A stretch of DNA of 64,000 bases, taken from NCBI GenBank assembly GCA_965655095.1, contig OZ296648.1:177320001-177384000 (forward strand). Reading direction: 5' to 3'. The notes beneath the pieces are model-generated. The model was not told where the DNA came from. It saw only the letters and a program-made list of their open reading frames with translations, and did not search any database. Made by a program: the position numbers and the translations under genes. Positions within the stretch are counted from its first letter, which is position 1. Every line of letters begins with the position of its first letter. Source of the stretch: Haplodiscus bocki. Taxonomy: Eukaryota. This document shows, in pieces, positions 2,729-58,266 of the stretch.

Positions 2729-3431
2729 TGTAGCGGCCCTGTATGAACCAGTACGAACATTTTGCAAGCAAATACTCGACATCCACTTCAGATTTATATT
2801 GTCATCTTTTGTCCCCCAGCCCCATAAACAGGCCTCTTTTAAAACAATCAAGTCTCAGCTTTGTATTCAATTAGCCAAGTAAACCCACACTTGAAGTGGC
2901 AATATATCTTATCATAAACTATCATTTTCACATGTTACATTATATTCCAGTCCTAACTTGTTGATTTTCATACGCATCTAAACTTATAACCAGGCCTCAA
3001 TTTATAAACTTTCATGTTAATCTAAACTTGTAAATTATCTTAAAAACATGAATCCTCCAACATTCTGCTGTTAATTGTAATCCTGTTTAAAACTTGACTA
3101 TTCGTGAATTCGAAACAAGAAAAAGAAGCAAAAACAAAAATCAGCAATCAGACGAACACGGAAGCGAAACGAGAAGAAGCTGCTTGTAAAAGAAGACAAA
3201 AAGAAAGAAAAACTCTGAACAATTGTGATATTCTGCTGATCATCACTAATGTAAGTGATTTGTGTTAAATATTAAAGTTAAATTCAGTCTTAAAGCAGAA
3301 CTAGATTTTTCTCTTAGAACAATCCCAAAGAGTACCTAACACAAACAACCGTCCTCGCATCCGAAGTATTGAAAGAAATGAGAACTCTAAACTCTTGTTG
3401 CCAATTTTCCAATAAAATCACGGTTGTTAAA
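2729..3431 (+). repeat. Element 1 5' LTR
   Basis: TGTAGCGGCCC...CGGTTGTTAAA, matching 14722-15424 with about 7 substitutions seen by eye. Splice-donor-like GTAAGT at 3251-3256; AATAAA at 3411-3416. Confidence 0.97.
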
Positions 3432-3432
3432 T

Positions 3433-3451
3433 TGGTGACAAGGGTGGGATT
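3433..3451 (+). promoter_or_regulatory. Primer binding site of Element 1 (tRNA-Leu/Ser-like)
   Basis: TGGTGACAAGGGTGGGATT lies 1 nt after the LTR. Its reverse complement AATCCCACCCTTGTCA-CCA resembles a tRNA 3' end of the Leu/Ser type. Confidence 0.8.
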
Positions 3452-3830
3452 GTTTTAAGCAATTTAGGTTAAAAATTCTTAACTTAGCATGATCATAGCT
3501 TTCCAAAAACTGCCTTAAGATCTCTTTGCCGGGACTTGTGCCGCGCTAACGCTAGTTTGTGCTCCACTAGCGAAAACCACCGTAGACGGCAGCTAAGGCC
3601 CATAGGTAGGAAAATTGAAATGAGCACGGGCAATTAGGAAATTGGAATTTTGTAAAACGAACTACTCTTCAGTACGGTTAGTTTAGTTCTTCATTAAATG
3701 ATTAACTTGTAGATAACTTCAAATACTAATTTTAGCTTGTTTTCTCTAACTGCCTTCATAAATAACGCAATCCTTCTTTTTGAAAATGACTTGCCTCCAG
3801 AAAAAGTTTTCCGTTTTTAAAATTATCTGA

Positions 3831-4082
3831 ATGTTCTCTAACCATACTAATCAACTACCCCTGTACCTTTTAAACCCAAACAACCCCGTTGACCCCCCAC
3901 CCCGTTATTCACGGAGCGACTCCGGGAGGCTACGCTACGATAGCAGCTCTGTTTTTCTTTGGGCGCTTTTCGCATTCTGTGTACTAGCACTCCTCTTTTT
4001 GATAGTGGTAGGATTAGTCCTCGTGCGCATACAATTAGATCACGTAGTAGCCAGTTGCACAGCCACTTCGCTAACAAATTGA
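3831..4082 (+). CDS. Small leader ORF: 83-aa single-pass membrane peptide with PPxY motif
   Basis: ATG-initiated; PPPRY followed by a ~25-aa hydrophobic stretch (VFLWALFAFCVLALLFLIVVGLVLV); lies between PBS and gag. Confidence 0.45.
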   Translation: MFSNHTNQLPLYLLNPNNPVDPPPRYSRSDSGRLRYDSSSVFLWALFAFCVLALLFLIVVGLVLVRIQLDHVVASCTATSLTN

Positions 4083-4577
4083 AGAATTCCTAACCGCACC
4101 TCAGTGGAGTTCGACTGTTTTTTTCCCAACATTCAATGCATTCTTTCATCTTTAAATCAGAAGCCAAACTCTTAGACCCACAGCATACCCCCACCCAATA
4201 CCCGTGTTTCTTCTGCCAGGTCGAATCGTTCGGACTCTTCAACATTTGGAGAAATACTCTGCCCATGCTTGTCAATTGTCACCTCAATTGTCTCTAATTT
4301 ATTTAACCTTGTTGCAAATCCACGATACCGATCATAGTACCACTATTGTCATCGAAAAGCTTTCCAGTAGGAAACAACTATCGAGAGTGCATCCCAAATC
4401 ACTGTTTTATTTCCGGTTAGCTAGAAAGTGGGTCAAAAACTTGCACCTTATAGAAGTATATTTGACAAATCTGTACCTCAAAAGTGAGAAAACTCAAATT
4501 TGAACTGCAATTTGCGCCAGTCCCTCAAATTCGCACCTTTTTAACAAGTATAAAGATAACGCTGACTACTAATCATA

Positions 4578-5981
4578 ATGACTGAAGTGGAAGAAAATAA
4601 CATCGATGTCAACGAATTTGAAGAAAGAGACGTAGACGCGTCAAGGAGATCTCGAATAACAAATTCAAATGACCCTCACTCAACCCCGGGATTTGCTGCG
4701 CGACACGAAGCAGGTGGATCCGCTTCGGCCGGACCTCATTTTTCGACACTTTTGGGCCATGGAGCAGCTCCAACTGCCCAGATGGGACCTGGTGGTTTCT
4801 TTTTAAACCCCACTAGTACCCTGCCGTCATGCCTGATGCCTGACTCATTTACTGGATCAGGAGACTTTGAAGACTATCTCCAAAAGCTCAACACGGCCGC
4901 GATGCTCTCGGGATGGCACTCTTCCCGACACGACAACCGTCCCCAGTACTTTGCACTTCGATTGAGGGACAATGCACTTCATTTTTACACCACATTGTCA
5001 CCCGAACAACAGAATGATTTTGACCTCCTTGTAGACGCTTTCAGACAAAATTACACAACCAATGTGGACATTTTGAAAGCACGATTAAAAGCTGCGAAGC
5101 AGCAACCAAGTCAAGATATTGCAACCTTCCTCTGTGATATTCGAACATTGGCACGCCGAGCATACTGTGCCCATCCGCATCTGATAGACCAAATCGTCCT
5201 CACCAGTTTCATCGAGGGATTGCAAAGTTCCACTCTCCGATGGGAAGTGAGAAAAACGAAACCATCGACAGCCGATGAAGCCTTGACAATGGCCATTGAA
5301 CTAGACTCTTTCCTTGCTCTGGAGCGCCAGAACAATGCTCCGGCCAGTTCCTTGTTCCCGAGCAGCATCAATTCAATCGCAGCAAATGCTTTGCAGACGG
5401 ACCCTATGGACGAACTCGTGAAAAGCCTTCGAAAAGAAATTGACGAATTGAAGTCATCGATCAACAGGAGACAAAACTCGCCCGAGAGAGGTCGGAATCA
5501 GTATCGCACTAGTGACCCAAATTGGAACAGAAGCGGATCCAATGAACAGACACGTTATCGACAAAATTTCGAAACAAGAAACGACGAACGGAGATCCAAC
5601 AGGTATGACAATAGAAGTAATTCAAGAGACAGATCAGAAAACAGGGCAACCCACCATAATGACCGGAGCACTTCGTATGACAAACAAAATGGTTTCAAAA
5701 CCCGGTCAGTTCGATTCGAAGAGGATCGTGGACGGACACATAACAATCAACACAATCAATCAATGCGCTACAATACACATAGCATGAATGCCGGAAATCA
5801 TCAGCCTATGAATAGCAACCGCAACAAGACATCTTCAAGATATCCACCTCAGAATCAAGAATGTCGACATTGTAAACGAAGAAACCATGCTTCTCATGAG
5901 TGTCAAGCCTGTTTTAATTGCCTCCGCGTTGGACATTTCCGAAGGGACTGTCCTAGGCAACGATCCAACCAGGAAAACTAA
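4578..5981 (+). CDS. gag: Gag (capsid + zinc knuckles)
   Basis: Retrotransposon-gag-like core (LRLRDNALHFY...KQQPSQDIATF...SFIEGL), R/N/D-rich region, and two CX2CX4HX4C knuckles (CRHCKRRNHASHEC, CFNCLRVGHFRRDC). Confidence 0.93.
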   Translation: MTEVEENNIDVNEFEERDVDASRRSRITNSNDPHSTPGFAARHEAGGSASAGPHFSTLLGHGAAPTAQMGPGGFFLNPTSTLPSCLMPDSFTGSGDFEDYLQKLNTAAMLSGWHSSRHDNRPQYFALRLRDNALHFYTTLSPEQQNDFDLLVDAFRQNYTTNVDILKARLKAAKQQPSQDIATFLCDIRTLARRAYCAHPHLIDQIVLTSFIEGLQSSTLRWEVRKTKPSTADEALTMAIELDSFLALERQNNAPASSLFPSSINSIAANALQTDPMDELVKSLRKEIDELKSSINRRQNSPERGRNQYRTSDPNWNRSGSNEQTRYRQNFETRNDERRSNRYDNRSNSRDRSENRATHHNDRSTSYDKQNGFKTRSVRFEEDRGRTHNNQHNQSMRYNTHSMNAGNHQPMNSNRNKTSSRYPPQNQECRHCKRRNHASHECQACFNCLRVGHFRRDCPRQRSNQEN

Positions 5982-6014
5982 AACAGTCTACGCAAAAGGG
6001 TCTTCGCGCAGACT
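5972..6014 (+). promoter_or_regulatory. Putative -1 ribosomal frameshift signal (gag-pol)
   Basis: G GAA AAC (5972-5978) directly precedes the gag TAA. pol is in the -1 frame and open from 5972. An imperfect hairpin AGTCT...AGACT spans 5985-6014. Confidence 0.7.
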
Positions 6015-9000
6015 TGAATAATAGAAAGGGCCCACAACGAACAATTGGTTTAAACTCAGTGGTCGATTCGCGCAGCGTTTTTGTGCAATTGAAAATTTTA
6101 GACAAAATGGTGGAAGCAGTATGCGATTGTGGAGCAAGTGTATCTTGTTTGAGCTCTGAGATTTACAACGAACTTAAGAAAACTTATCAAATAACATTGG
6201 AAGCCTGCACTAGAAGCCTGAGAGCGGCAAATGGACTGCCGATTGAAGTGAAAGGCATGATCAGAGTACCAGTATGTCTGGGGAATAAATTATTCTATCA
6301 TGAGTTTCGAGTTTTGGAAAAATCAGAAGCTGACTGCCTTTTAGGTCTGGATTTCTTAGAACGCCATAAATGCGACCCCCTGTTTTCACGAATGGAGTTA
6401 AGGTGGGACTCAACCCATTCTGCCCCCCTCTATCACAAAAACTTTGAAAATGACCACCATGCTATCTTTCGAGTCGTTGCGACCGAAACCATTAAAGTAC
6501 CAGCAGGCCACGCAACAATTCTTCCAGCACACATCCCAAATTGGAAGAGACCACCTTTCCACCTAAATGCTGTTTTTGAACCTTTGGAGAAATTCAATAT
6601 GAGTGAAGACATCTCAGCTCACAACATACTTTTTGATTTTTCCGACGATACGATCCCTGTCATTTTGACTAACGCATCGGACTCTGAGATCACGATCTAC
6701 AAAAACACAACTCTTGGGTCATCCGAACTTGTATCGGACGAACTCATCAATAATGTTAGCCACCAATTGCCAGCCCCCAGCGCACCTCCGGCTGCAGGAT
6801 CGGTACAAAACCGGCCAGACTCTTCGAGATATGACTTGCGAACAGTGATCACCTCAGTTGATTCAACCATTCACCGACAATACCGTCAACAATTTGCCGC
6901 ACTCGTCAAAGAATTCAAGCACGTTTTTTCGTCCTCAGAATGGGACTTGGGTAAGTGTGACGCTACGAGTCACAAAATTGATGTCTACCCTGACTCCAAA
7001 CCGATCAAAATTCCTAATCGTCGAATGCCATTGCCTTATAAGGAGGATTTGCAGTCAAAACTTGATGTGTTTTTGGAGAAAGATTTGATCGCACCTTGCC
7101 ACAGTCCTTACAGTTCTCCTGCTATGCTAGTGCCAAAGAAGAATGGAAAGTTGCGTCTTGTTATTGATTACTGCCAACTAAACAAGCAGACTGTTAAATC
7201 CAGTTGGCCGATCCCGTCTTTTGAAGAAATCTTCGACACACTGGGCGGAAGCTGTTATTTCTCTACAATTGATATGTCCGCTGGATTTTATCAAGTACCC
7301 ATGGATAGGGACAGCCAAGACTACACAGCATTTAGCACTCCCTTTGGATCGTTCAAGTGGCTGCGAATGCCGATGGGACTAACTGGAAGCCCAAACACTT
7401 TCCAAAGCCTAATGGAACGTGTTCTTACTGGCCTTACCTGGAAAACGTGTGTACCCTATCTCGACGATTGCATCATCTTCTCCACAACCCCAGAGGAACA
7501 CCTTTCACGTTTACGCCAAGTATTTCAACGTTTCCAGCAGGCCAACTTGAAAATCAATCCATCGAAATGCGCTTTCTTTCAAACGAAGGTACAGTTCCTT
7601 GGGCACATTGTCAGTAAGGATGGACGTCAGGTGGACCCCGAGAAAATCAATGCAGTACTTAAGTTTCCTACCCACACCAACCAGACACACGTGAAGTCCT
7701 TCTTGGGCTTAGCCTCCTACTATCGCCGCTATGTCAAAGATTTCGCTGAAATCGCTCGACCTTTACACAAAGCAAGTGAAACTTCTTCCGAGTTTCAATG
7801 GAATGACGCAGCACAAACTTCTTTTGACTCGTTAAAACATGGTTTGACGACCACTCCAATTTTAGCATATCCGTCACTTCAAAAGCCATTTGTGTTATAT
7901 ACAGACGCCAGCCAATTTGCAATGGGCGCTGTTTTGGCTCTGGAACAAGACGGTTTAGAACGAGCAATCTGTTACGCCTCCAAGGCTCTTTCCAAAACCG
8001 AGAGCAAGTATTCAGCAACTCGTCGTGAACTCTTGGCCATTGTAACTTTCACCCGTCACTTCAGACACTATTTACTGGGACGCAAGTTCACCATTGTAAC
8101 GGATCGTCGAGCACTTCAATGGCTCCATAATTTCAAAGACCCGGATGGAATAACCGCCCGTTGGTTAGAAAAATTAGCACCTTTTGATTACGATGTTCGA
8201 CATCGTCCTGGGAAGTCTATTGGACATGCTGATGGACTTTCAAGAATTCCGTCGCCCATACATGCAGTAGCAGAAACCAACAACCCTTCATTCCCGTTTG
8301 AAGAACATCTGGGACCCAATGACTCGCCCACCTATCAGACGCAAGTGAACGACGGTAGTTACTACTCTGACCAACATCACATTGATTCCCCCACGACGAA
8401 TGCAACAACTCAACAGCAAGATGAAGCAATCGGCATCTACCGCGAAGCAGTTGGAAACCTTTTCGATATCCACGAGTCCTTTGGCCACTGTGTGTCCGCT
8501 GACTTCAAAATGTCGGCCGGTATAGCGAGAAAGATTCGCCGTAACTACCCTTGTACTTACCCAACCGGATGGAATCACATCACGAACCCCTTTTGGCCCC
8601 AATGGTTGCCTGAATCCAAACGATACCTCTACCATTTAGTTACAAAACAGAAGTTCTATCAAAAACCAACTTACGGAACACTGCGCGCTTCCTTGGAAAG
8701 AATGCGATCGCACGCCGAACAGCATCACGTTTACAAAATTAGTTTGCCATGTATCGGCTCTGGCCTCGACAAGCTCGAATGGGAGCAAGTACGCCAACTG
8801 ATTCAGGAAGTTTTCCGTACCTCCCCTTTTCATATTACTGTTTTTCTGAAAACTCCAGTAGACCCTAAGGAGAACGACTGTAACTCCGATTTCCATGACA
8901 ACGCCTTGGTACAAGCACAGGAAGCTGACGAAAGCTTACACCAGGTTCGGAAATGGATTCGAAAAAGTCGTGTACCTCGGAGGGATGAACTGCAAGGACT

Positions 9001-10771
9001 CCCTCGTTTAGGATGGCAAATGTTCAACCAATTAGCTAGTCTCCACATCAAAAACAACGTGCTTTGTCGAAAGTTTGAACCACTTGACGGTAATTTGCCC
9101 TTCTTACAAAAGATTATTCCGCGATCCATGGTACCAGAAATTTTGACGGCTTTACACAGTTCTAAAACCGCTGGTCATTTGGGAACGCACAAAGTCATTG
9201 AAAAAGTGCGTCAACGTTTCTGCTGGCCCGGATTTAAAGAAGATGTCAAGCAATTCATCCAATGTTGTGACGTTTGTCAAAAGAAGTCTGGACCCCCAAA
9301 GACCCACCGCCATTCTTTAGTTGACTGGAAGATCAGCTACCCCTTCCATCACATTGGTCTCGACTTTCTTGGCCCACTTCCCCTTTCTAATGGCAACCGC
9401 TTTATTCTTGTGATTGGCGACCATTTCACCAAATGGTACGAGGCGATACCCCTGCCAGACCAGCAAGCTTCCACTACTGCCGATGCGCTAATTGAACACT
9501 GGATTTGCCGTTTTGGATGCCTTAACAGCATTCACACGGACCAAGGCCGTAATTTCAAATCAGCCTTGTTTCAGCGTCTGATGACTTTGCTCGAAATCAA
9601 TAAGACACGGACAACTTCTTTCCACCCACAGTCAAACTCAGTCATTGAGCGCATGAACCGCACATTACTGAATATGCTCACCAAAAGTATCGACAAACAA
9701 CAAGCTAACTGGTCTTATTTCCTTCCCTTCGTTCTAATGGCATATCGGTCCTCCGTCCACGAATCAACCGGTTTCACTCCCAACCGTCTGGTCCTTGGAC
9801 ATGAGGTTTTGCTTCCTCTTGACTTGATGTATCCGCCTCCCGGAAGCCACGTCCCAACTAACATCAATGAATATGTGATGACCCAACAACAGAAATTTCA
9901 CCAAGTTTTCGAACTAGTTCGGTGAAATATTACAGCTCAACAACGCCGTCGCAACGCTCTTTACAACAGGAAAGTCCACGGCCCCACATACAGAGCGGAT
10001 GATTTTGTCCTTCTCCATTACGACGTCACTGTCACTGGCCAAAGTCCAAAACTATCCAGCCCCTGGCGCGGCCCTTACCGCATTTTGAAGTGCATTAATG
10101 ACGTTAACTACAAAACTGAGGAACTCTCAACTGGCAAACAGCTAATTGTTCACTATGACCGCCTAAAACGATACCATGGCAGTCCGCCTCCCTCAACGAC
10201 AAAACCGGCCCGACCTTCACCTCCTGGACCTGCTCAGCAGACGACATCGCAGCCCTCCTCGGAGACCGTCAACCACGATGACTGCGTTGTCTCGTATTTA
10301 CCTCCTCCTACTCTCTTTGCTCCCTCGCCGTGGTTCAGCCACCCGCTTCCGACCCCTACAGACAACACCCCTTCCCGAAATGTCACCGTTGCTTCCCATG
10401 TCTCGCCACCTATTTCACCGAGTATTACTGCCTCCACACTTCCCTACGCTTTAATGCCTAGCTCCTTGCCATCCCAAGCCTCAATTCCTTCCCGTAATGC
10501 GACTTCTTCCAATCAACCCAGGACAATCCCGTTTACCAACTCCCCGCCTACGAGACCCCCGTCTTCCCCGGTGGCGAATATTGTTCGTCGCGCTGCTCGC
10601 GAGCTACACAGCCGCAGTCCCTGCAACAAACGTACCCTCCGACCTAGCACGGCGACTCAACGAAAAGCACAGCCTCTTTTCCGCTCTCGCTTACCCCGCG
10701 ATCTGACGGATTTCCTTTCTCCTAGGAGGCAGAAAAAAGCGCAGCCTTCTGCTCTGTCTAACCAGCACTAA
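6014..10771 (+). pseudogene. pol: Pol: protease - RT - RNase H - macrodomain - integrase (GPY/F) - P/S/T-rich tail; one in-frame stop at 9923-9925
   Basis: PR VCDCGAS; RT YLDD; RNase H YTDASQ...RELLA; integrase H-H-C-C, IGLDFLGP/IHTDQG/SVIERMN; in-frame continuation PWRGPY after the TGA into ORF 10085-10771. Confidence 0.95.
8435..8848 (+). other. TARG1/OARD1 (Poa1p-like) macrodomain inside Element 1 Pol, between RNase H and integrase
   Basis: GNLF...GHCVSADFKMSAGIA...YLYHLVTKQKFYQKPTY...ISLPCIGSGLDKLEWEQV...VF parallels the TARG1 motifs AHCISEDCRMGAGIA / YIYYLITK..KPTY / MPRIGCGLDRLQW (recalled, not searched). Confidence 0.9.
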
Positions 10772-10846
10772 CACTCTGTCACAGCCAATGAACCAATGCC
10801 GAATGATTGTATGGTCTTCTCTTTATTTAGGAGACACACCAGCTAT

Positions 10847-13201
10847 ATGACGTCACCCACCCCTTTCTTTTTCCTTCCTTTTTTATCCTCCTTCCTCAAC
10901 GTCTGTGCTGATGTCCAGTTCACAACACATTTGAGCGATTCATTGGACGACCCTGTTTTCAAGAAAGGTGCTGCTTTTGTCTTTCAATTTCAAGCCGTGA
11001 CACCGGAAAGTGAGAGTAAGGTTCGTGTGTTCTCACCGTTCCCAAGGATCCCTGATATTAACTTGACCAACGCGTATACTATCCTTCAACAACGTGGACA
11101 CTCCGATACCCTAGCAGGAATGGCCTCGGTTAAGCTGTGCCACACTGCAGACTTGGAACAATTATATGATAACTTGTTTAATCGACTCGCCGAAAAATTG
11201 AAAATATTGGAAAAAGAAATTCAAGCTGCTCAGACAGATCAACACAACTTGGTGACGATGGCTTCTTCTTTCTTACCGCCGTCGATTCACCCACATGACG
11301 CACCTTCACGAAACAAACGAGCAATTGGACTCATCGCAGCGGCTGCGGGAGCCGCGGGACTGGCTCTGGGAGACCCGGTCAAAGAGGCTGCATGTTCAGC
11401 GCTCTCTATTTTTAACCTTTGCACAGATACTTCAGATTTGCAACACGACATTGACGGTATTTTAGCTACTCAATATCAGTTTCAAGATGTTCTGCAACGC
11501 GTTCAAACGAAAAACGATGAAAAATTTTTCTTGCTTGGTAACGAAATCAAAGACACACAGGACAGTGTGGTCAAGATAACAAAACTCGTGGGCACACAGT
11601 TAAAAACCCTGGAAAAAGAATTAATGGAAATCAAAGGCGTGATAGCCAGCCTTCCGGTTTGTAATCAACAACTTATACACAGTATGTCCTTTTTGCAACA
11701 AATTCGGGATTATATTGATCATTTGGGAACACTGTACGCACATATTAAATCTTACAGAGCCGCTTTTTACGCCTACCAGATTGCGCTCTATTCCACTATT
11801 TCGTCACTGGCTGCTGGGTATGTCAGCCGTCAATTTCTCCTCCCTTCCCAACTGGCTTCCATTGTCAGCGACCTTGCCCATGACGAGACTCTCCGTGGCA
11901 ACAAGCTCTCGCCTGCCATCCATGTGGGCCAGGAAGCCATCTACTATGAACTCCAGATGGTTTTAGAAGTTTCCCTTCTCCCTAAAGGTATTTCGGTTGT
12001 CCTTGGCGTTCCGATGAACTCTAAGCGCCCCTTCAACGTCTATCGCGCAATTTCCCTGTACCAGCCTAACGATGATGGCGATACCGCTTCCTTGTATCAC
12101 TTCCCCAACCCTCTTCTAGCCATATCTACTGACAATTCCCGTTTTGCTGAGCTTGATGCCGCCAGCCTTCAGCAATGTTCTGGTAATAACCGCATTAAAC
12201 TCTGTCGTCAAGGTTTTTCGACCACTACAGACGAAACCTTGCTTTGTTTACCGTCTTTGTACTATAATTACGATATACCCGCTCTTCGTAACTGTAAAGT
12301 AGAATCTGTCCTTCTGCCTGACGCTCCTCAAGCTTTTTACTTGGCTGATGGTTTATATCATATTATCTCTCGTGACCCTCACATACAGATGAAAAATGAC
12401 AGTGGCTCTGACTTTTCTATTTCTACCTTATCTTGCAAAGCTTGCTTGATCCGCCCTAGCTGCAGTAGCACCCTCTCTTTCAATCAAGGTGATTTGGAAC
12501 TCCGCCCTGACCTCGATTTCTGCAAAACTAAACCCGAACCCTTCTTGGCCAAAATACAGCTTACTCCTTCTCTGGATTAGATCTTTCAGCATGTTCCCCG
12601 CACCGCCAGTAACTTTCACACATATTCCGTGACGGAAGCCCGTCACTCAGTCCTTAGCAGCGTTCGTTTGGAATTAGCCGAACTCCCTAATGTTAAAACA
12701 ATGTCCACCGAATCCCTTGCTGAGCTTGCAAGACCAATCGCTCAGTAAAATTTTTCCGTCTCTCCGGCCACTTCTGCAGCCTTATCCTCTTACCTCCCCA
12801 CCCGTACAGCTATCTGTTTTTCGGTCGTCTCCATCACTATCTCTCTTCTTACCTTCAGTATTAGTTTTACTCTCTTCCGTCGACAATGGAAACGTCTCTT
12901 TGCCCACCCTCAACGCTTTTTCCGTGGTACTTCTGGCAAGTTCTTGCACATTGTGGATGCCCATCCAACTTCCCCTAACACAGACTCTTCTTTCTTGTAC
13001 CTTTCGGTGCAAGAGTTTCAGGCCTTGCAGGCTCTCGCCCATGCAACTCTCCGTGACCGGTCCCCACCCTTAGTCTCACCCAACCCCCCGGCTACCGCCT
13101 TACCCACTCACCCGCCTACTAACTACACTCAACCTAACCCCCAACTCACTAGTGTGTATCCTTCTGTTACTGTGCCTCTGTACTCCGAATCTACTACTTA
13201 A
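10847..13201 (+). pseudogene. env: Env, class I fusion glycoprotein (baculovirus F/errantivirus/paramyxovirus F-like); in-frame stops at 12578-12580 and 12746-12748
   Basis: Signal peptide MTSPTPFFFLPFLSSFLNVCA; furin site RNKR (11309-11320) followed by fusion peptide AIGLIAAAAGAAGLALG; heptad region; Cys-rich region. The in-frame TM (ICFSVVSITISLLTFSISFTLF-RRQWKR) and tail continue through ORF 12944-13201. Acceptor-like TTCTCTTTATTTAG ends at 10830. Confidence 0.88.
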
Positions 13202-44880: not shown

Positions 44881-45183
44881 CTCTGGTATTTTACGTCAGA
44901 GAGAAAAACTATTAAAAAAAGAAATAGCGTCTTCACAGGTTTTCCCCGTGGAAGTTCACTCTATTTTTTCAGAGGAATAGCTATTGAAAAAAAATGCCGT
45001 AACATCAAACCGGCGCTCTGTGGGCACTAACACAAAGTGGAAACTATAATTTTATAGTAGTAGTTCCACTACTATTAAAACAACGTCGAGATTTTCATAA
45101 AGGGTGCCGGAATAGAACCGGTATCACCAAAAAAGTGCCAAATTCAGTATGTAAAAGTAACTCACCTCAACCATTGGGTTTCT

Positions 45184-47517: not shown

Positions 47518-47940
47518 TCAGGAAAAGTAAGTTGAATCGTCAGAGTAAATTGCAGAGGTCGAACAGTCGATTGAATGGACTGATTCTTCATCTGAGGAAT
47601 GTTCGTAACCAATATAATCGAAAATATGGGAGTGAAAACGTGTAGGGAGGTAGGCGAGTAATTCTTCGAGGAGAGGGTCTGTAGTTGTAAGAGAATGATA
47701 GCAAAGAAGATCGTACAAGCTAGCCATTGCTTTAGAGCCGAAATGAACTTGAAGGTTACTTTTATTGGTAAAGGGAAGACCAGGGTTAATAGGGGATTTT
47801 TGGGAGAGGCAGACACGGACTATATGAGTAGCATAGTTCCAGTAAACTTTGTTGAGAAGTGCCAAATCAAAGTTCAGTCCGTGCCATTCAGAAGGAACAT
47901 GCCATACACAGTTAGGATAAATTTTGTGGCATTTAGGCAT
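47518..47940 (-). CDS. Accessory ORF, 140 aa, acidic Ser-rich tail
   Basis: ATG preceded by pyrimidine tract and acceptor TTCCCTACTTTATTCCAG|ATAACC; lies just downstream of pol. Confidence 0.55.
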   Translation of the reverse strand: MPKCHKIYPNCVWHVPSEWHGLNFDLALLNKVYWNYATHIVRVCLSQKSPINPGLPFTNKSNLQVHFGSKAMASLYDLLCYHSLTTTDPLLEELLAYLPTRFHSHIFDYIGYEHSSDEESVHSIDCSTSAIYSDDSTYFS

Positions 47941-50900
47941 GGTTATCTGGAATAAAGTAGGGAAGTATAAAGCATATAATAAAGCTCATGAGGTATAAAT
48001 ATCAGAATTGTCATAAAAGAGATCATATAAAAAGTGAAAAATTAGAGTTTATAGCCTTGTCGAGTGCGCGTTTGGAGTACCGATTGTGAATCGGGATGAT
48101 CGGGCTGAAAGCGATTGTATTTTGGCTCTTTGGTTTTTGATTTCCGACTTTTTTCGATGAACTGTTGAATAGGAGTTAATGATCTGCTAGGAGGAGGCAT
48201 TCGTGAAGTTGATGGTATAAGAGGCGACTGCGAATGATCAGGTGTTATTGGCATTGCCGGGGAAGGGAAATGAGGAGAGTTAACTCCAGAATCACTACTA
48301 GTATTACTGACTCGTTTCGATGAGAGTGTAACCGGAGCAGTACGGAGAGGTTCAATAGGAAATGGGAGAGAGTCTTCCATGCTGGATTGTTCGGGGTTGT
48401 TTATCTTCTGAATGCGTTGTTCCATGAATCGTTCGTAGAAGTCATCCTGACGGCGGTCCATAGGCACATATTCCTCAATCATCGGAGGTAGAGTTTCCTC
48501 TTTAGAATAGTATTCGACTAGGTGATTTCGATGGACTGTTTTAAGAATCGTAGGATCCTTATCATCTTGGATTTGGTAAGTTGTGTTAGTTATTCGTTTC
48601 GTAACTGTAAAGGGTCCAAGTCGTCTTTGTTGAAGTTTCTGGCTCTTGGAAAGATCTTGGCGATGATTTTTGTAGAGAATTTCTTGTCCTATCTCTTAGT
48701 GTTGTCCCAGTTTGAATCGATTTCTGTAGGCATGGGATCTGGCTGTTTGTTCACGACATCTTTCGAAAGTAGCAGAGTAGATTCTTTTGAAGGCGCGTTC
48801 TCGTTCTAGGAGTGCATGTGAGAGTTGTGGTCGCAGGAGATTGTCTAATAACTGACTTTTTAAGTTGTTCTCACTATGTGAATGAGGTGGTAGGTCCTTG
48901 CAGAAATCAGAACAGCAAAGTTTGTGTTTGTTGCGGTAAAGTCCAAGTTTCAGATACATAGGAATCTGAGGTTTGGTATCGAAAACAATTTCATAAGGGG
49001 TCTTTCCAGTTGTATACTTATCACTTGTATTATGTGCAAAAGCAAATTTAGGAGCTAGTAAAGACCAATTGTTCCCAGCATCGTTCAAGAAGTTTCGCCA
49101 ATAACGGGCGACGTGTTGGTTTTGAGTTTCAATTTTGCCATTAGTCCAAGGCGAATGTGCTGTTCTAGGTCGTAAAGTGATTCCTAATTCTTTTGTCCAG
49201 TTAACGAATTCGGTATTGATGAATGCCGTGCCTCGGTCATGCACAATAGATTGAGGAATTCCGAATGAATGAATCCATTTCTCCACGGCAGAAATCGTAG
49301 TCTGAGCACCAGTGTTAGCAACTGGATAGACCATCAAGAACCGGGAGAATGCATCAATAACCAGGAGACAATGAAGGTTTCGATTACTTGGTGGGTGAAG
49401 AGGTCCCTTGTGATCTATGTGAATTGTTCGGAACGGAACAGTCTCGTTTTGCCATTCTTCTAGGGGTACTTCGTTCCTGTGTTTAGGCTTTGGTTTGTTG
49501 TTCTGGCAGGTGAGGCAATCAGCGGTAAGCGCACATATCCAATCAAACATACCGGACCAGTAGTAGAATCGTTTTGCATTGTTATAGGTTTTGGCGGATC
49601 CCATGTGTCCACCCATTTCATTGTAATGTCCAAGTCTGAAGCATGCTAAGAATAGGGATAGGGGTAGGCAAATTCGTAGGTTTTCATCATCTAATTTGTC
49701 AGTAGGTTCGTTGTAGCATAAGAGTTGTCCTTCTTCCTCGATTAAGAGTCGATCGAATTCTTGGCAATATCGAAGTAATCCCTTAGATTGTTGAAAATCG
49801 GGTGATTTTGCTTCGGGCGAGATGCTCTTACGGAGCCAAGAACGGACAGTGCCAAGCACTGGATCTTTAATCTGCTCGGCTAAGATTGTAGAAACGTCAA
49901 GATTAACTGTCTTAGCAACATCATCTAGTTTAGCAATTAGAGATTTAGTGTCCAAATGCGGCGCCTCAGTAGCTGTGAGTAGTTTCTTGGCTAGGGAAGC
50001 GTCTATTTTTCCCAAGATTGCGTCATGGGCTGCTTTAGCTTTGCACAGTCTGGAGTGGTCGGTGTGTGTGTTTATTTCACATATTAGGTTGTCCTCCTCG
50101 TCACTGGCAGTGGCGTCGTTCTCGACATCATGGGTCTCGTCGAATGCATTATCGTCTCCGTTAGTGTTCAGTGAATTGATCGCACTGTATGTGGGTTCGG
50201 AGTCTTCTATGGAGCTCAAGGATTGCGTTGAGGGTAGACATAGACGTCGGAATTGGTTGATTGTTCTGCCCAGTCGGAAACAATCCGTTGCAGATTGTAT
50301 TGTTGTTGAAGGAAACTCGTTACTAAGACTATTTAATGTGAAGGTTTCACCATCATTATGCAATCGGAGAACCTTGTTGTCGTTTCCTTGTTGGCAGTGC
50401 ATTGGGTAGAAATCGTTGCAAGTGTCGTTAGGATTATCATCGTGTTGTATTCGGTAGGTCACCGGAGAGCCACGTTCGTCATAGAATTCTATGTCTCTAG
50501 GTATTTTCTTGTGTTGTAGCTGATGTTTCTGGTATTCTTCCACCGTCACGTTTCGACTTAGAATATCCGGTAAAACAAGATTTGATCCTGGAGTCCAGAT
50601 AATCTTGAGATTTTGGAATTTAGTTATGATTACTTGATACCTGAAGAACCGATGCGATAGTTGTCCTTTTCTTCCCCATAGATACAGAATCGGTTTGTGA
50701 TCACAATATAAGTATATAGGGAAAGGAGATCCAATGATATAGTGTTCATAAGTTTGTAAAGCGGAGACTATTCCACAAAGTTCCCGATGCAGGGTAGACA
50801 TTTTCTGTTCTGCTTTGTCCAAGATTCTAGAATTGAAAGAGATTATTCGTTTTCCTTCAGGGAACTGTTGGATTAGGATGCAACCAGTTCCAACGTTTGA

Positions 50901-52244
50901 TGAATCCACATGAATGTGAAAGGGATATTCAGTAGAGGGTACAGCAAGAATAGTGTCTTCGCTAATCCTGTCCTTGATGGTTTGGAATAATTTTTCGTGC
51001 TCATGTGTCCAGTGGAAAGGAGTCGAGTCCTTAATCAAGTCGCAGAAGGGCTGACTGTCCACATGAAGGTTCCTAATATAACAACTCTAGAACCCTAGGC
51101 ATCCAAGAACTTTCATGACATCTCGTATACTTTCTAGTGATTTGAGGTTTTTCAAGTCTTTTACTCGTTTTGCAATAGGTTGAATTCCTTCTGGTGATAT
51201 AACGTGACCAAGAAATTTAACTTTCTTTAGGAAGAAGAACATTTTGTCGGGTGCTGCTTTAAGACCTGCTTTCCTAAGAAGAGTATGGAACTCGTTGATT
51301 ACTGTGAATATTTCGTTCTTGTTTTGTGATTGCAATATGGTATCGTCGATGTAAGTGATTGCTTGTTTTTCTTGATGAGGGGGTCGAAATGTATTGTCAT
51401 TAGCCGACTGAAGAAGTTTGGAAGTCCGCATAAGCCATAGAACCCACGTGTGTAGGTGTACTGTTTCCCACACCACCAGTTGGATTATGAAACTGGTTAG
51501 CTTTTGTGTGTCTGGGCTCAATGGAACTTGATGATAGGCACAGGAGAGATCACTTACTGAGAAGACTTTGCCATTGACCCGAGTGATGATCATCTGCACT
51601 GGTTCTTAGGGCCAGGAATAGATCGTAAGATCTGTCACTGAATTAAGATATCTCGCATCAATCACTAACTTCACATAGTCGTGCTTAGGCATTAAGATGA
51701 TTGGGTTAACAAATAACGATCCCATCTCGTCGTCGTCACCCATTTCACGAATGATATCTGCGTCTTTTAGTTGTGTGAGTAGCTTTTCTAGCTTTTCTTT
51801 CAAGTGTAGGGGGATTTTGCTAGGTCGTTGTCGTTTCAATTCCACATTAGGTTTTAGTGTGACATTGAAATTCTGACGGGTTTTGCCCACATCGAATTTA
51901 TGATGAGAATAAACGTCTCGCGCGTCAACTAACATATCAATCAGGAGTACCATTTCTTCGTCGGTAATGTCCGAGTACTGGAAGTCGAATTCTTTAACGT
52001 AGTTTATGAGTTCTTTTGGCTGATATTGAAGATAGTGATCAATGAGTCGGTGGCTGTGATCTTTCTCACGGAGGATTGGAAATTGCTCGTCACATGTTGG
52101 CTGACAGGATTTAGAGTCTTTAGTAAAGTCTGTTTCTAACTCGTGGTTTTCTAGGAGAAATTCTTCACTGTATCGTTCTATCTCGTCGTCTGCATAGAAC
52201 TCAGCATCGCCTTCAGCGGACAACGCGTGAACTCCACTTTCCTC

Positions 52245-52670
52245 GAGAGTGTAGACTACGATTTGCACTTCAGCATAAGCAAAGATGTCTCGAAGTAGCT
52301 TTACAACCTCTTGCCAATTCATTTGATCTAGTCCACAACCAAGTTTGGGTATAGCAATAGTGGAGACACCATTTGTACTAGCATGAATCTTCATTGCTTC
52401 TAATGTTTTAGACAGTGTTGGTAGATTAGGTTTGTCGCAGAACCTTTCTTTAGTCACTAAGTTGTAGATGTAGCGTTTTCCTGTTGAGTCCCAAAAAGGG
52501 TAGACTTGTCCCATGAAGAGTTTTGGTTTTCGGCATGTTGATCTAAGACCAGGAATTCTATGGGATAGGAAATCTGCGAAGCCTTTACTCATTCGGGCAT
52601 CCGCCGATATGCAGTGTCCAATCTAATTAGGTTGTAGGAGAATTGAATCTTCCGTGCCATAGATGATTTG
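52245..52670 (-). other. TARG1/OARD1-type macrodomain inside Element 2 Pol, between protease and RT
   Basis: IGHCISADARMSKGFA...YIYNLVTKERFCDKP...TLEAMKIH...IAIPKLGCGLDQMNWQEV...IVVYTL. Confidence 0.9.
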
Positions 52671-53548
52671 TAAAAATTCGTCACTGTTCTGGGCTGGAAC
52701 CGTTGAATGTAAGAGAAAGCAGTCATTGTATCGTTCATCAGTAGAGACGACAGCATTTGTTAACTCATAAGGACTTCGTATTTGATATTTGGGTTCTTCT
52801 TGATCAACCACGTCAAGAGAAGAGAATCCGATCCGTCCCTTTGGTAGCGTTATCTGATGATTCTTGTTGTTTTCCATCAGTATTGGAAGATTACATTCGG
52901 ATCTGGTACATAAAGTGTTTATAAAAGACAGGCCAGTAGCCACAGCAGTTCGATTCGGCTGAAAAGTAGAGCCTGGTGGGAAGTGTATATGGGGATCCGT
53001 AGGCGAATATTTCCAGCAACGGGCACTTTTAGCATCAATATACTTTGTATAAGGGGTTCTAATAGTTAAGGTTTGCGACAGATGGGGATAGGATTTATTT
53101 TGGTGGAAACTGCCATAACAGATTGACTTTGGAGGATTTTTAATTTCAATCCCAGGCAGATCAAAATCAATTCCAGAAACCTGTTTTTGGCAGAAGTCCA
53201 TGCCAAGGAGATTTTGAGTCCTCATCTCAGTGATCCACACTGTTAGCGGGAAGATAAATTGTCCATCTGGATCATAACTAAAAGTGATAGTCGCATGGCC
53301 GATCATTGGAACTGTTTGTCCCGAGTAAGTCTTTGTTATTTTGGTAATTTTTTGTATAGTGATTGGGTGCTGTAACTGGCAAATTTCCCAAAAAGTTCGG
53401 TAATTGGTGATAGAGCAAGAAGCTCCTGTGTCTAACATGAATTCGATCTCTAAACCACTTTCTTTTTGAGTGTCTCCGGTGGCGAAGTGGAAGATATTGA
53501 GGCTAAGTCTTGAATTTCTAGATTTGTCGGTGTTTGAGTTCGGAGACC

Positions 53549-54989
53549 TTAGTAGTTTAACGGGCAAAGGTCCGATATTTCGTTAACCGTATCATCTGTT
53601 GTTGTGAAACGGACCACATTAGATGATGTTTGATTATTGTTCTGCGGAAATTTTTGTTCGTAGGGCGTAAAACTAGTCGTTGGTCGATTGTCAGATCTAC
53701 GGAACGCAGAGTTATTAGGTTGATCACTTCCTGGTTGGCGATAGGAGTTATTCTGTGAAAAGTCTCTTCTTTGAGTCGATGGTGAACGAGAAAAGTTTGC
53801 ATTTGGTCGCCAGTTCCCATTCGAGTTATTGAAAGATCCATTTCGAGATCGAGTTCCATCGTTTGTATTAAATGACTGATTTCGACGTTGATCAAAGGAT
53901 CTCCCATTGTCTGGGCGATTATTTCCTTATGGGAAGTGTGGTCTCGGAGAGAAATTCTGGTTTTTATTGGGGGGAATTTCTCTTAAATCCATCGTTATTA
54001 TAGTTGTTATTTCTTCTTCGGAAATCCTGACCTCTGGTCCATTGTTGCGATTCATGGTCTGGTCCTCGTTTCTTGTTGTAATCTTGAGTAAAAGTGACTT
54101 TTTTGTCGGCAGTTCTTTCATTCTCAAATCTTTTCAATTCTTCATCTCGTATCTTCTTGCGGCACCAGCTTGGGGTATGTCCGTTTGTGCGGCAAAAGTT
54201 GCAAAATCGTGTTGCATTCTGTCTTCCCTTCTGATTTGGGTCTACTGTTCGAGAATTTCCTTCTACAGCATTGACTCGGTGTTCTAGCAGCTCTGATCTT
54301 AGGTTCTTCATCTCTTGGCCCAACGTGGCCATCTGAGCCTTGGTTTGTTCTTCGTCATTTAAAAAGTTGGAAGAAACTTGAAATGATATATCTTTTTGTA
54401 TTATTCTGGCAGAAAAATCGTTCCACGTAGCATTTGGGTTTTCCATCAGATATTCCTGTGCCTTTCGTTGTAAGTATTTCGGTCTAAGTCCCTTTAGTGA
54501 GTAGTCGATGTATCTCTGTCTTCTTTGTCGTCCTTGAGCTGCACGTTCTTCGCCGTGTTGAGCAGCCTCAACACCGTTCATATCGTCGGGCCAACCTTTA
54601 TCCACAGTTCTCTTGATACGGTGTAAGAAGTTTCGGATTTCTTCTCCGTCTCCTCTAATGCAATGTTCCACTTCCATTCGGTATCGGAATTTGTTTCGTC
54701 CGTCTGAGAATCTGGTGATGAAGTTCGTTCGGACGTCGTCCCAGGCTGTTGCGTTGGTAATATTGCTTTCGTACCACTCAGCGGCTGGTCCTCGGAGTAA
54801 AGAGGAAAACAGCGCTTTCTTCCTGAAGGTGTAGTTTGCAAGTTCACTAAAGTCTCCAGGTGCGTCTCCAAGAGCAAAGTTGATTCTTCGTTCATTTAAT
54901 TGGATAAAGGATTCGGCGTCCTGATCGGGGTCTGTGCCAGAGAGTTTGTCGATGGCTAGATCAGGATACGCGAGGTGAGTATTGGCCAT
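53549..54989 (-). pseudogene. gag: Gag (one frameshift near 53964 and a stop at 53927)
   Basis: LLRGPAAEWY gag core; knuckle CNFCRTNGHTPSWC; N/R-rich tail ending DLCPLNY* at 53549. Confidence 0.88.
53555..53561 (-). promoter_or_regulatory. Putative -1 slippery site G TTA AAC (gag-pol)
   Basis: gag reads CCG TTA AAC TAC TAA; the -1 frame reads PVKLLRSP, the start of pol. Confidence 0.65.
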
Positions 54990-55005
54990 TGTGGGAGTTG
55001 TATTG

Positions 55006-55347
55006 TCAAACCAGGGAGTCTAATAGTTCTCCAAGAATATGAAGTTGGTAGGAGTTTATGTGGGGTTCGGGAGAATCTTCGTATTCGTCGAGAACTTCTG
55101 ATAGAGATTCAAGTAACGGGTTATTTTTATTAATATCTATTTGTTTCGAGATATTGGGGTTTCCTTCTGGGTGGGCAGTTACTCTGATCCAAAAATCATA
55201 GTTGAAGGTCCATTTTATGCATGTAATGACAACTGTTAAGGTTTCGTTTCCAGAAGTGATGGTCCACAGGCAATTCAGTGGAATATGCTGGCATTCATCG
55301 TCTATGTCATTCCAATTCGGAGGAAGATTCTCAGATTTCTGTGGCAT
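55006..55347 (-). CDS. Pre-gag ORF, 113 aa, unknown function
   Basis: ATG-initiated, globular-looking composition, ends 16 nt before the gag ATG. Confidence 0.5.
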   Translation of the reverse strand: MPQKSENLPPNWNDIDDECQHIPLNCLWTITSGNETLTVVITCIKWTFNYDFWIRVTAHPEGNPNISKQIDINKNNPLLESLSEVLDEYEDSPEPHINSYQLHILGELLDSLV

Positions 55348-55713
55348 TTACAATTTATTCTAATTTAACACGAGTATTGAGATTTGGGAAAGGAATTATA
55401 ACTTTAAGAATCAATTTTCAGAGGTTCGGTTGCGAATAATTTTCTCCAATTCAAAAACTGCTAGGAGATAGGTAGGTGTTAGAAGTAGGGCGATAACAGC
55501 AATCAAGAAAAAACATAGCGCCAGAATCAAATCAGTTCTCAATTGAAACTTTTATACTGCAGAAACTCGAGAATTACTGGATGAGAGTATTCTAATCAAG
55601 GCAAATGTTAGAATTCCCAGAGATATAAGAAGATTAAACGTTACAAAAGGAAAAATAAAGAGAAGCATTTAGCGCCGCACAATATCTAGCAAATCGCTCA
55701 AAAAAATTTAAAT

Positions 55714-55734
55714 CGAGCCTCACTGGTTGCACCA
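55714..55734 (-). promoter_or_regulatory. Primer binding site of Element 2 (tRNA-Ile(UAU)/elongator-Met-like)
   Basis: TGGTGCAACCAGTGAGGCTCG lies 3 nt after the LTR CA. The + strand reads CGAGCCTCACTGGTTGCA-CCA, like a tRNA 3' end. Confidence 0.8.
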
Positions 55735-55737
55735 GTT

Positions 55738-58266
55738 TGTCGCGAGGGGTAGGGGGAATTATTGCTATGCTACTACGAGCATGCGGAAAGTAGAATCAAT
55801 ACTTGAATTTAATATTCTTTCTCGCTCTAATTTTCTTTCTCGCTTAGTGCGGCAGGTTATTAGTGTTGCTTCTGTTGTCTAGATCAATACAGCGGCGGCG
55901 CCGCGGCGATTGTTTCGTCTAATGAAAATAAATCTCAGGGGCTTTTATCGATCTACTTTCAGGTGCCTTGCAGGCCTCGCGAACAAAGATTGCGTAAGTT
56001 CAAAGCAAGGACTTTATGAGCGATGAGGGGAAAATAGGAAATGAAATAATCAATTATTCAGTCAGCCGGGGGAACAAATATAATTAAATGGAAAATGAAA
56101 GGGGACTGCGCTAATGGAAACTGAATCATATAGTAGCAAAAGTGGGAGCAGAGTAAATTTCAGTCTCCATATAAAGTGTTTACAGCAGCCAGCAGAAAAT
56201 TTTGTTATTTTTAAAATCACCGAGAATTTATTCCCTTCAAAAGAATTACGATTATCGTCCCGTTGTAAATATTCCCTTCATTTATAAAATTCATCAGTTC
56301 AGCTGAAACTCGAAAACGTAATATTCAAGAAAAATTAAGATGGAAAACGCTGATAACACAACGAATATCTGATAATCTATTAAAAAATTGAATGTTTACA
56401 AAATCATTAGTAGAAATAAAATTAGCAAAGCAGTTTCCAATAACTTACGAATTTCATATGACAAAAATATAAGATGTCTTTTACAAAACTCTCAATACTA
56501 TTTGAGATAAATTTCGGAGGTAAATTAACGTCTAGTAGTTTTTTTTTCTTTAGGCCAGATAGGAGACCTTTGTTCTCCTATTGTTCTGGGCCTGTTTTCT
56601 GAGGGAGTTTTTGGCTTTTTGTTGGTTTTATTTTATTAATTAACGTTATGTTATATATAACCTTTTGTATTTTGGTCTACACTCAGTACTGGCTTCGGCA
56701 CAGTAACTGGTTGTGATCCTATTTTCCCGATCGTCCAAACCGTGAATAAATCACCGGATTTATTGGCGGGATTTGATTTGTTTTAAGCTTTGTCAATTTT
56801 GGTCTACACTCAGTACTTGCGTCAGCACAGTAACTGGTTGTGGTCCTAGTTTCCCGATTGTCCGAACCGTGAAAAAATCACCGAATTTAGTGGCGGGGTT
56901 TCGATTTGTTTTGAATTTTGTCTATAACTCAGGCAAAAGCTCGCTTTTAGCGGCAACCTGGTGATATTCTCCTAGTTCCCTTTCTTTCCAACCGAGAGCT
57001 TTGTCTAGCGGATGTTACGGAAGGAATTTATAAAGATTAGAACTGATCAGAGAGATATACTCAGTCTGAACTAGGAAACTTATTGACTTACGGTTACCGT
57101 TGATGGAGTTTGATGATCTATTGATAACTCTGGGACTCTCCTCTGGGAAATCTGACTTGCGCGGAAAACGAATGGGAATTTTCGAATCAATACAAGGAAT
57201 GGAATTGTTTGAATCAAGAATGGACGGTTTCTGCGTATTTAAACCGTAAATCGGAATTTAGAATAAATTCTAAAGACCACGGTAGCAGACGAGGTGAGAA
57301 TGGTCTATGAGTAATGTCAATTCTCTTTGCCTAAGAACCTCGTGGGGGGTCGTGCATATTTAAGATCCACTCATGCTTCAGAACTAAGTTCATCCACGGA
57401 ACCCGCACACGCCAATGCCGAAGCTAGCGTCAGTGGACACCGTTTAGACTCCGATGGCAAGAGTATGTAATAGGTAAGCAGGGAAGAGGGAATTTTTCTA
57501 AGTCAAGAAAAGAATGGGACTTAGAATATTTTTGTAGAATTGAGCTGGTTTTGCGATTAAGACGGAAATTGGAACTGTCTTAGAATATTTTTGTAGAATT
57601 GAATTGCTTTCGCGACTAAGACAGAAATTAGAATTGTCTTAGAATATTTTTGTAGGATTGGAATTGGACTTAGAATATTTTTGTCCAAGAAGAGGAGAGA
57701 AGAGAGAAATTGGACTTAGAAAATTTTTGTCCAAGAAGAGGAGAGAAGAGAGAAATTGGACTGAGAAAATTTTTGTCCAAAGAGGTAAAAGGGAGAAGGG
57801 AGTTGGACTTAGAATAAATTTGTCCAAGTAAAAGGGAGAAGTAGAGTAAAGTAAGCAAGTCAGAAGAGGAGTAAGAAGTCCCGTCCGCTTGAGCGGGAAA
57901 GCGAGTTATGATCAGGTCCGTTTCCCAGATCGACCCCAAAATAACATCATGCTGCCGTTTCATGCAACCAATAAGAAAAAAGCTTGTAGCAGCTATGGAA
58001 CCAATAAGAAAAAGGCTTGTAGCAGCCATGGATTTTTGCTTGTAGCAGCAGGAGCCAATAAGAAAAAGGCTCGTGTTAGAAATTTTTTTATAAAAACTAT
58101 TTATGCAACTTCAACGGTTTCTTTATTTCTTCAGCTTTTTTCTATTCTTCAATTCGTTAACGGCCCCCATATTTATCGACAGCCGCTCAAGAAGGTTAGC
58201 TTTAATTAATTAATTAATTATGTTTCCATTAATTAACGTTTAAGCGTTATGTGTAACGCGATAACT
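55738..58266 (-). repeat. Element 2 5' LTR
   Basis: Direct repeat of 38119-40646; minus strand reads AGTTATCGCG...CGCGACA. Confidence 0.96.

Follow-up and report, generated by a model that had tools for sequence, protein, structure and literature searches.

The 64,000-nucleotide stretch analyzed here (the window; Haplodiscus bocki, assembly GCA_965655095.1, contig OZ296648.1, positions 177,320,001 to 177,384,000 of the forward strand) contains two young, damaged, env-bearing copies of Ty3/gypsy elements, one from each of two families. Element 1 (E1) occupies positions 2729-15424 on the plus strand, and Element 2 (E2), 20 kb long, occupies positions ~38119-58266 on the minus strand. Comparison of the long terminal repeats (LTRs), Pfam domains and similarity ranking against Ty3 agree with a sequence-only reading of the same DNA, which had placed two distinct env-bearing gypsy-type elements between these outer coordinates. 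The parts of both elements are listed with the basis of each assignment; PR, RT, RH and IN denote protease, reverse transcriptase, RNase H and integrase, ORF an open reading frame, TM a transmembrane segment, and dN/dS the ratio of nonsynonymous to synonymous substitution rates.

2729..3431, plus strand: E1 5' LTR, 703 bp, preceded by a 4-bp target-site duplication (LTR comparison)
3433..3451, plus strand: E1 primer-binding site (16-nt core with 51 genome occurrences against 0 for a control)
4566..5981, plus strand: E1 gag, with Retrotrans_gag and a CCHC knuckle (Pfam)
5957..10771, plus strand: E1 pol, PR-RT-RH-Macro-IN-SH3, with an in-frame stop at 9923-9925 in the window copy (Pfam, RT ranking)
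8429..8884, plus strand: TARG1-type macrodomain in E1 Pol, in the gap between RNase H and integrase (E 2e-23; dN/dS 0.12-0.39)
10772..13201, plus strand: E1 env, class-I F-like, in two frames in the window copy (Pfam, site search)
13540..13592, plus strand: putative splice acceptor (pyrimidine tract and AG) ahead of the J ORF (conserved across copies)
13593..14672, plus strand: E1 accessory J ORF, in two frames in the window copy (predicted model, Pfam, dN/dS)
14722..15424, plus strand: E1 3' LTR, 703 bp (LTR comparison)
38119..40646, minus strand: E2 3' LTR, ~2.53 kb, with tandem repeats inside and its terminus a few bases short (LTR comparison)
40684..42051, minus strand: E2 TRAF ORF, with a PAM2-like motif, coiled coils and TRAF-C/MATH and no RING; in-frame stop near 41920 in this copy (Pfam, PDB matches)
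42051..42674, minus strand: E2 ORF-D, 207 codons, a Pro/Ser-rich orphan (dN/dS 0.21-0.31, frame control)
42697..44895, minus strand: E2 env, class III (Monjiviricetes/gB-like), with signal and TM segments (Pfam; dN/dS 0.10-0.11)
44898..45516, minus strand: candidate small ORFs of E2, one of 110 codons and a broken hydrophobic one (candidate frames)
45522..45905, minus strand: E2 ORF-C, a 127-aa orphan (stop-free in 150/150 scored matches)
45925..46146, minus strand: E2 73-aa orphan ORF, beginning right after an upstream stop (stop-free in 138/150)
46147..46402, minus strand: candidate paralogue of the 73-aa ORF, in two frames here (likeness by eye)
46809..47405, plus strand: E2 ORF-B, an antisense orphan of ~198 aa (265 homologue clusters, alignment)
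47518..47940, minus strand: E2 ORF-A, an orphan of ~140 aa with an acidic tail (stop-free in 133/150)
48042..53982, minus strand: E2 pol, PR-Macro-RT-RH-IN-SH3, with multiple stops and frameshifts here (Pfam)
52203..52622, minus strand: TARG1-type macrodomain of E2, in the gap between protease and RT, its N-terminal strand lost to a stop here (E 5e-25)
53964..55019, minus strand: E2 gag (Pfam)
55713..55734, minus strand: E2 primer-binding site, overlapping the LTR end (sequence)
55734..58266, minus strand: E2 5' LTR, ~2.53 kb (LTR comparison)

Both elements combine LTRs, a primer-binding site, gag and a PR-RT-RH-IN pol, the features that define Ty3/gypsy (Metaviridae), and Pfam places gag, PR, RT, RH and IN in gypsy order in each. 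The E1 LTRs differ by 7 mismatches (Kimura two-parameter (K2P) distance 0.010) and those of E2 by 22 mismatches and 1 gap over 2540 columns (K2P 0.009), and because of these small distances both insertions are young. E1 is flanked by its 4-bp duplication; no target duplication was found at the ends of E2, whose 3' LTR is missing its final few bases. Stops or frameshifts interrupt both pols, the E1 env, the J ORF and the TRAF ORF in the window copies. As had been read from the sequence, the elements differ in LTR size, primer-binding site, env class and macrodomain position (RH-IN in E1, PR-RT in E2); their Pols are merely 26-30% identical and a comparison of their envs gave no similarity. A search identified no tRNA matching either primer-binding site; that of E2 presumably resembles tRNA-Ile. 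The E1 primer-site core is matched four times, at a spacing of ~2.5 kb, at G000:C5:94900712-94908336 (G000 being the 1.5-Gb genome searched), possibly a tandem tRNA array that supplies the E1 primer. There was no Rfam match, and no splice-donor consensus was found in the leader of E1 or of E2.

In a similarity ranking rather than a tree, the best reference for the E1 RT-RH was Ty3 (E 8e-74), followed by cauliflower mosaic virus (7e-55), murine leukemia virus (MLV; 7e-36) and foamy virus (3e-33), and the E2 RH, with weak scores, likewise ranked Ty3 (2.5e-6) ahead of MLV (5e-4). A single gypsy-type RH follows RT, where Retroviridae have a degenerate tether and a second RNase H, and the MLV and foamy virus RTs scored far lower in the E1 ranking; both results speak against membership of Retroviridae. 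The complexity in accessory genes that the sequence-only reading had attributed to complex "endogenous retrovirus-like lineages" stands, and the lineages are Ty3/gypsy, not Retroviridae; the "anti-immunity toolkit" that it attached to them is an interpretation, weighed below. The E1 env scored against Baculo_F at E 0.0017, which falls short of the Pfam cut-off, and it carries a furin-type site and a C-terminal TM segment, while the E2 env matched Monjiviricetes_fusion at E 1e-35 and had no match among PDB sequences. With an F-type (below cut-off in E1) and a gB-type fusogen env, the two elements fall within the broad errantivirus definition of PMC13524379.

The extra genes recur across the genome. 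A first look yielded 139 candidates for the E1 J region, 1553-2640 for E2 DNA regions, ~2967 for MATH and ~6229 for the macrodomain, figures that count candidates and not copies. Pol with the macrodomain, env and the J ORF occurred in the same order in all 20 fetched E1 copies (from 39 other matches); as these copies were picked by the J region, the presence of pol, macrodomain and env is an actual test of linkage. The env frame reached at least 780 codons in 9/20 copies and the J frame at least 362 in 10/20. For E2, at least 7 of 39 macrodomain matches lay 9-11 kb from a TRAF match, among the matches listed. The J, macrodomain and TRAF ORFs thus recur in other copies, and the measurements that follow show that they do not evolve neutrally; absence from other copies or neutral evolution is what the sequence-only reading had named as evidence against itself.

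Pairwise dN/dS (Nei-Gojobori) was calculated for the closest 11 E1 copies, for 9 farther ones, and for the top 11 of 41 other E2 matches. The closest E1 copies gave 0.06-0.07 for RT, 0.10-0.14 for IN, 0.12-0.13 for env, 0.12-0.18 for the macrodomain and 0.09-0.10 for the J ORF, with 0.47-0.70 in the Pro/Ser-rich IN tail. Every ratio was higher in the 9 farther, more decayed copies (RT 0.16-0.31, macrodomain 0.23-0.39, J 0.14-0.23). In E2 the values were 0.16-0.21 for MATH, 0.55 for the TRAF linker, 0.10-0.11 for env and 0.21-0.31 for ORF-D. Frame controls gave 0.9-2.6, except for the codon-aligned antisense shadow (0.2-0.4), and non-coding spacer gave 0.7-1.4; single-pair Fisher tests ranged from p 2e-14 to 0.016. 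Purifying selection acts on the accessory genes at a strength near that for RT and env. The analysis shows it along with the architecture, the presence across copies and the conservation of motifs.

Both macrodomains match human TARG1 structures at the E values listed, in agreement with the TARG1-like domain read in each element, and are 37% identical to one another. The Lys and Asp positions of TARG1 align in both, with each motif present in 18/20 E1 copies; we take the aligned residues to be the catalytic dyad of TARG1/OARD1. In 149 other copies the E2 macrodomain has 94-96% amino acid identity, compared with 89-91% DNA identity across the surrounding 1.2 kb, and it often lies within frames of ~1847 codons. 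A macrodomain tree (143/152 rows after matches of <100 residues were left out, 144 columns, quick method) places E1 and E2 in different subgroups of one 32-row group (Shimodaira-Hasegawa-like approximate likelihood-ratio support 94), and with separate subgroups inside a shared group the two domains may derive from one capture or from two. Retroelement Pol domains were found in 10/54 scanned TARG1-like representatives (54 of 150 listed), with the macrodomain in three positions, and some of these 10 proteins may stem from the window's own organism. They include P0269, P0216 (Athalia rosae), where the macrodomain sits between RNase H and integrase as in E1, and P0273 (1651 aa), a gypsy-type Pol with a TARG1-like domain and a weak match to the Tpt1/KptA 2'-phosphotransferase after RT-RH-IN, so that an ADP-ribose writer and an eraser are possibly joined in a single retroelement. 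Because the macrodomains of other Pols fall elsewhere in this poorly resolved tree, their placement suggests that the domain was captured into retroelement Pols repeatedly.

The E2 TRAF ORF has the coiled coil and TRAF-C/MATH of canonical TRAF adaptors (TRAF/MATH in Pfam E 3e-14; best PDB TRAF E 3e-13) and lacks their N-terminal RING and zinc fingers, for which Pfam gave no match in the window ORF or in the full-length homologue P0065. A trimer of RING-less TRAF-C is the textbook dominant-negative form. The PAM2 part of the PAM2-coiled coil-TRAF/MATH protein described earlier rests on a pattern: a PAM2-like motif lies at 42045 and the pattern recurs in 69/78 long homologues (among 120 listed of 677 clusters), and Pfam PAM2 did not score on P0065. 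PAM2, whose core consensus is L/F-N-x-x-A-x-x-F-x-P, is a motif of translation and messenger ribonucleoproteins (mRNPs). Directly upstream, ORF-D starts at a putative splice acceptor, near 42660, with a pyrimidine-AG pattern in 11/12 loci; the ORF-D stop and the start codon of TRAF overlap in 10/12 loci (two were not located).

The E1 J ORF comprises an N-terminal beta-type segment, a long coiled coil, a J-domain with HPD and a C-terminal Cys pair. Its predicted model (predicted local distance difference test (pLDDT) 81.6) shows a coiled coil of 80 residues leading into a helical domain; as in J-domains, helices II and III of that domain flank the HPD motif, and its top PDB matches are J-domains (probability 1.00, best E 0.05), which bears out the J-domain previously assigned to E1. 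HPD is kept in 24/27 homologues of at least 260 aa (38 homologues were found) and in 17/20 fetched E1 copies, and relatives of the ORF keep an open frame down to 40-50% identity. The acceptor AG ahead of the ORF is conserved in 20/20 copies, with a tract of 79-88% pyrimidine in the 18 aligned copies. Among viral fold matches of the model is the baculovirus protein Bjdp (18% identity, E 0.32), which resembles the J ORF in joining a J-domain to a coiled coil and comes from viruses that have F proteins as well; the likeness is at the fold level of the J-domain alone and does not indicate common descent. A search for J ORF relatives in viral contigs gave 48 pattern matches, with 0 confirmed. We take Ac51 to be the Bjdp orthologue. 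Ac51 promotes nuclear egress of nucleocapsids (PMC12172431).

E2 has at least five further conserved orphan ORFs that the sequence-only reading did not include, namely ORF-A, ORF-B, ORF-C, the 73-aa ORF and ORF-D. The 3.1-kb pol-env spacer is ORF-dense and near-complete in 33/39 other scored matches. The stop-free counts listed for ORF-A, ORF-C (90-93% identity) and the 73-aa ORF (77-88% identity) come from a ranking by protein score, which favors stop-free copies; an opposite-strand control frame for the 73-aa ORF was stop-free in 7/150, mostly at 60-70% identity. The 73-aa match sits within a frame of 147-158 codons in several copies, and the ORFs at 46147-46402 and 45925-46146 resemble tandem paralogues by eye. 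ORF-B has an acidic, Pro-rich N-terminal half and a helical, conserved C-terminal half, and its segment is missing, with both flanks retained, in 4/39 spacer matches (G000:C8:54239267-54242478, G000:C3:73494883-73498090 and two C9 loci near 15.03-15.05 Mb), which suggests a modular, dispensable or subfamily-specific gene. No orphan ORF matched a Pfam family at cut-off. In Atlas, ORF-B had no usable match and ORF-C matched only low-recognition bacterial hypothetical clusters, which are weak leads. The ORF-B model was poor (pLDDT 61.6) and its fold search, which reached a best Z of 4.2 against PDB and gave no significant match to the viral library, is uninformative on fold novelty.

Parts of this architecture have been described before. 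Gypsy elements with F- and gB-type env are widespread as "ancient" errantiviruses (Chary and Hayashi, PMC13524379), and E1 and E2 resemble them as multicopy, recently active LTR-gag-pol-env Ty3/gypsy elements with both env classes. Those elements carry extra structures in the interval between RNase H and integrase; macro, TRAF, DnaJ and accessory genes go unmentioned in the main text of PMC13524379 and, as domains, in 7 of its supplements, as far as these were available, whereas our elements have a TARG1 domain in the bridge (E1) or in the PR-RT gap (E2) and extra genes after or around env. In E2, ~300 codons from RNase H to the integrase zinc finger (49600-50600, minus strand) are without a Pfam domain, a stretch that exceeds in length the "mini-domain" bridge of ancient errantiviruses. 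Planarian Burro/GYPSM1, present in thousands of copies, is a gypsy element with env homology and MATH/TRAF-C, which forms a separate accessory ORF in one species, and was proposed to interfere with apoptosis and ubiquitination (PMC6431247). Burro exceeds 30 kb, has an F-like env and mostly encodes env and MATH within one polyprotein of 4,900 aa, alongside BIR, BCL2 and ankyrin (PMC6431247), unlike the 20-kb E2 with its class-III env, post-env PAM2/coiled-coil/TRAF gene, macrodomain and orphan ORF array. Membership of Burro/GYPSM1 is ruled out by Pfam scans, which showed no BIR, BCL2, ankyrin or giant Gag-env ORF.

Macrodomains are known from teleost epsilon-like endogenous retroviruses (Basta et al. 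2009, as cited in PMC4977317). These, like other gypsy Pols, share with E1 and E2 the capture of a macrodomain by a retroelement; the teleost elements are Retroviridae with separate ORFs, unlike the Pol-borne domain here. Oikopleura Tor (PMC4402516) is likewise an invertebrate gypsy group with env, a pol-env spacer and, in some groups, internal promoters; it differs in that a macrodomain goes unmentioned and no accessory gene array was found in the available text. Downstream of pol, plant Retand, Grande and Ogre elements carry orphan ORFs that are conserved, some of them antisense (PMC7264820), in contrast to the animal host, true viral fusogen and several tandem ORFs of E1 and E2, and the antisense gene of human T-cell leukemia virus parallels the antisense ORF. 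No closer match appeared in the available parts of PMC6338049 and bioRxiv 2021.11.30.470311. Novelty is lower than the sequence-only reading assumed, because env with MATH and retroelement macrodomains were already described; a J-domain gene, a PAM2-TRAF gene or such an ORF array in a gypsy element was not found in the literature searched, which did not include Repbase, Dfam, GyDB or subscription journals. The element type was partly anticipated, and is more complex than had been read from the sequence.

Other repeats lie outside the two elements. At 17910-18940 there is a repeat cluster (an 81-bp pair and 61-bp and 13-bp tandem arrays) in which 45 nt show 78% complementarity to the E2 LTR; the cluster could be what is left of an LTR from a related family. 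An old dispersed repeat pair (33749-34072 and 60389-60699) has 67% identity. A 129-codon frame without a Pfam match (58265-58654) abuts the E2 5' LTR and may be part of a repeat into which E2 inserted.

The explanation that we favor, with slightly better than even confidence, is that E1 and E2 represent two independent, recently active errantivirus-like families whose accessory genes aid replication and cell-to-cell spread through a division of labor. TARG1 strips ADP-ribose off DNA and RNA ends (PMC11088682), and the macrodomain, made as part of Pol, would be packaged with RT and IN, would remove ADP-ribose from the element's nucleic-acid ends or proteins and would thereby counter PARP-type restriction or PARP marking during reverse transcription and integration. 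We infer that splicing and translational coupling serve expression of the other two. A spliced mRNA would yield the E1 coiled-coil/J protein, which might bring in Hsp70 of the host to help particles assemble, move or uncoat. The E2 RING-less TRAF, translated through stop/start coupling after ORF-D, might dock on poly(A)-binding protein (PABP) via PAM2 and act as a dominant-negative adaptor that damps TRAF-dependent immune or death signaling in the producing cell. An anti-immunity role is plausible for the TRAF ORF; it is ambiguous for the macrodomain, which is made inside Pol and would fit a replication aid equally well. For the J protein the case is weak; its nearest viral J analogue is a factor for nucleocapsid egress. 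Whether at least one of the three acts in counter-defense is an even call, and that all three do so seems unlikely. A bolder version, which we consider possible but less likely than not, sees in E2 an analogue of complex infectious retroviruses of independent origin within Ty3/gypsy, with a class-III fusogen, at least seven accessory genes expressed via splicing, stop/start coupling and an antisense transcript, a PABP-tethered TRAF decoy that would shut down innate signaling, and a particle-borne ADP-ribose eraser.

Several results weigh against the favored explanation. The J-domain stays below the Pfam cut-off (DnaJ E 0.0027) and its model has no fold match at E <=0.001; the PAM2 region is overall weakly constrained (nonsynonymous to synonymous polymorphism ratio, pN/pS, 0.65). 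The Asp of the TRAF NGD motif acts in binding receptor peptides, and since alignment to TRAF5 shows it to be replaced in the divergent E2 MATH, that domain may not recognize the ligands that TRAFs usually bind. The pairwise dN/dS values lack independence, and selection of the closest 11 E1 copies came after the linkage result had been seen. Low dN/dS is a sign of usefulness and says nothing of an immune target, and pairwise dN/dS showed no accelerated evolution of the arms-race type at the domain level. The same genes could form a replication-helper kit without an immune role, the macrodomain cleaning ADP-ribosylated DNA ends or products of tRNA processing while cDNA is synthesized and gaps are repaired, the J protein serving as an assembly chaperone, and the PAM2/MATH protein acting as a scaffold in RNA handling or trafficking, so that more element RNA is translated or packaged. 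This is possible but not probable in our view. It would fit the fixation of the macrodomain in Pol at three positions across elements, the pairing of a TARG1-like domain with Tpt1/KptA in P0273, DNA ligase, BRCT and PNK3P repair fusions among the nearest TARG1-like matches, the strong and uniform purifying selection, the role of PAM2 in translation and mRNPs, and the divergent MATH peptide groove; the dominant-negative form of RING-less TRAF-C and the replication of most gypsy elements without any of these domains speak against it. Also against it, MATH in Burro is united with the apoptosis modules BIR and BCL2 (PMC6431247), which points to control of signaling or death.

That the genes instead serve the host cell lineage, for example in stem- or germ-cell survival or antiviral protection with carrier copies tolerated, is improbable. 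The first-look MATH and macrodomain candidates could give the host a large dose, and host-benefit roles have been proposed for accessory domains of transposable elements (PMC6338049); the constraint, however, lies between dispersed copies and subfamilies and alongside gag, pol and env, and stops already present in these ORFs of the young window copies are expected for selection during replication and not at a fixed locus. Least probable by far is that recently amplified DNA carries these ORFs as neutral passengers or as frames open by chance, even though recent amplification leaves frames open by descent, ranking by protein score favors stop-free copies, and the ORF-B segment is dispensed with in some spacers. 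The low dN/dS against controls refutes this for the macrodomain, J, MATH and ORF-D, and the open J-ORF relatives at 40-50% identity and the 73-aa ORF, compared with its opposite-strand control, also speak against it.

Complex vertebrate retroviruses are characterized by their accessory genes. Selected multi-gene sets in two gypsy families that are unrelated to each other, one of them with candidate copies in the thousands, show that complexity of this kind arose more than once outside Retroviridae. Repeated capture into Pol, at varying positions, of a TARG1 domain that looks catalytically intact predicts that ADP-ribosylation limits LTR retroelements, and new candidates for host pathways that retroelements must manipulate come from the PAM2-TRAF gene, the J protein and the orphan ORFs. 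If the bolder version of E2 is true, it would mean, together with E1, that PARP- and TRAF-based restriction of retroelements is at work in the lineage of this animal, and that host signaling would be reshaped by thousands of TRAF copies carried on such elements.

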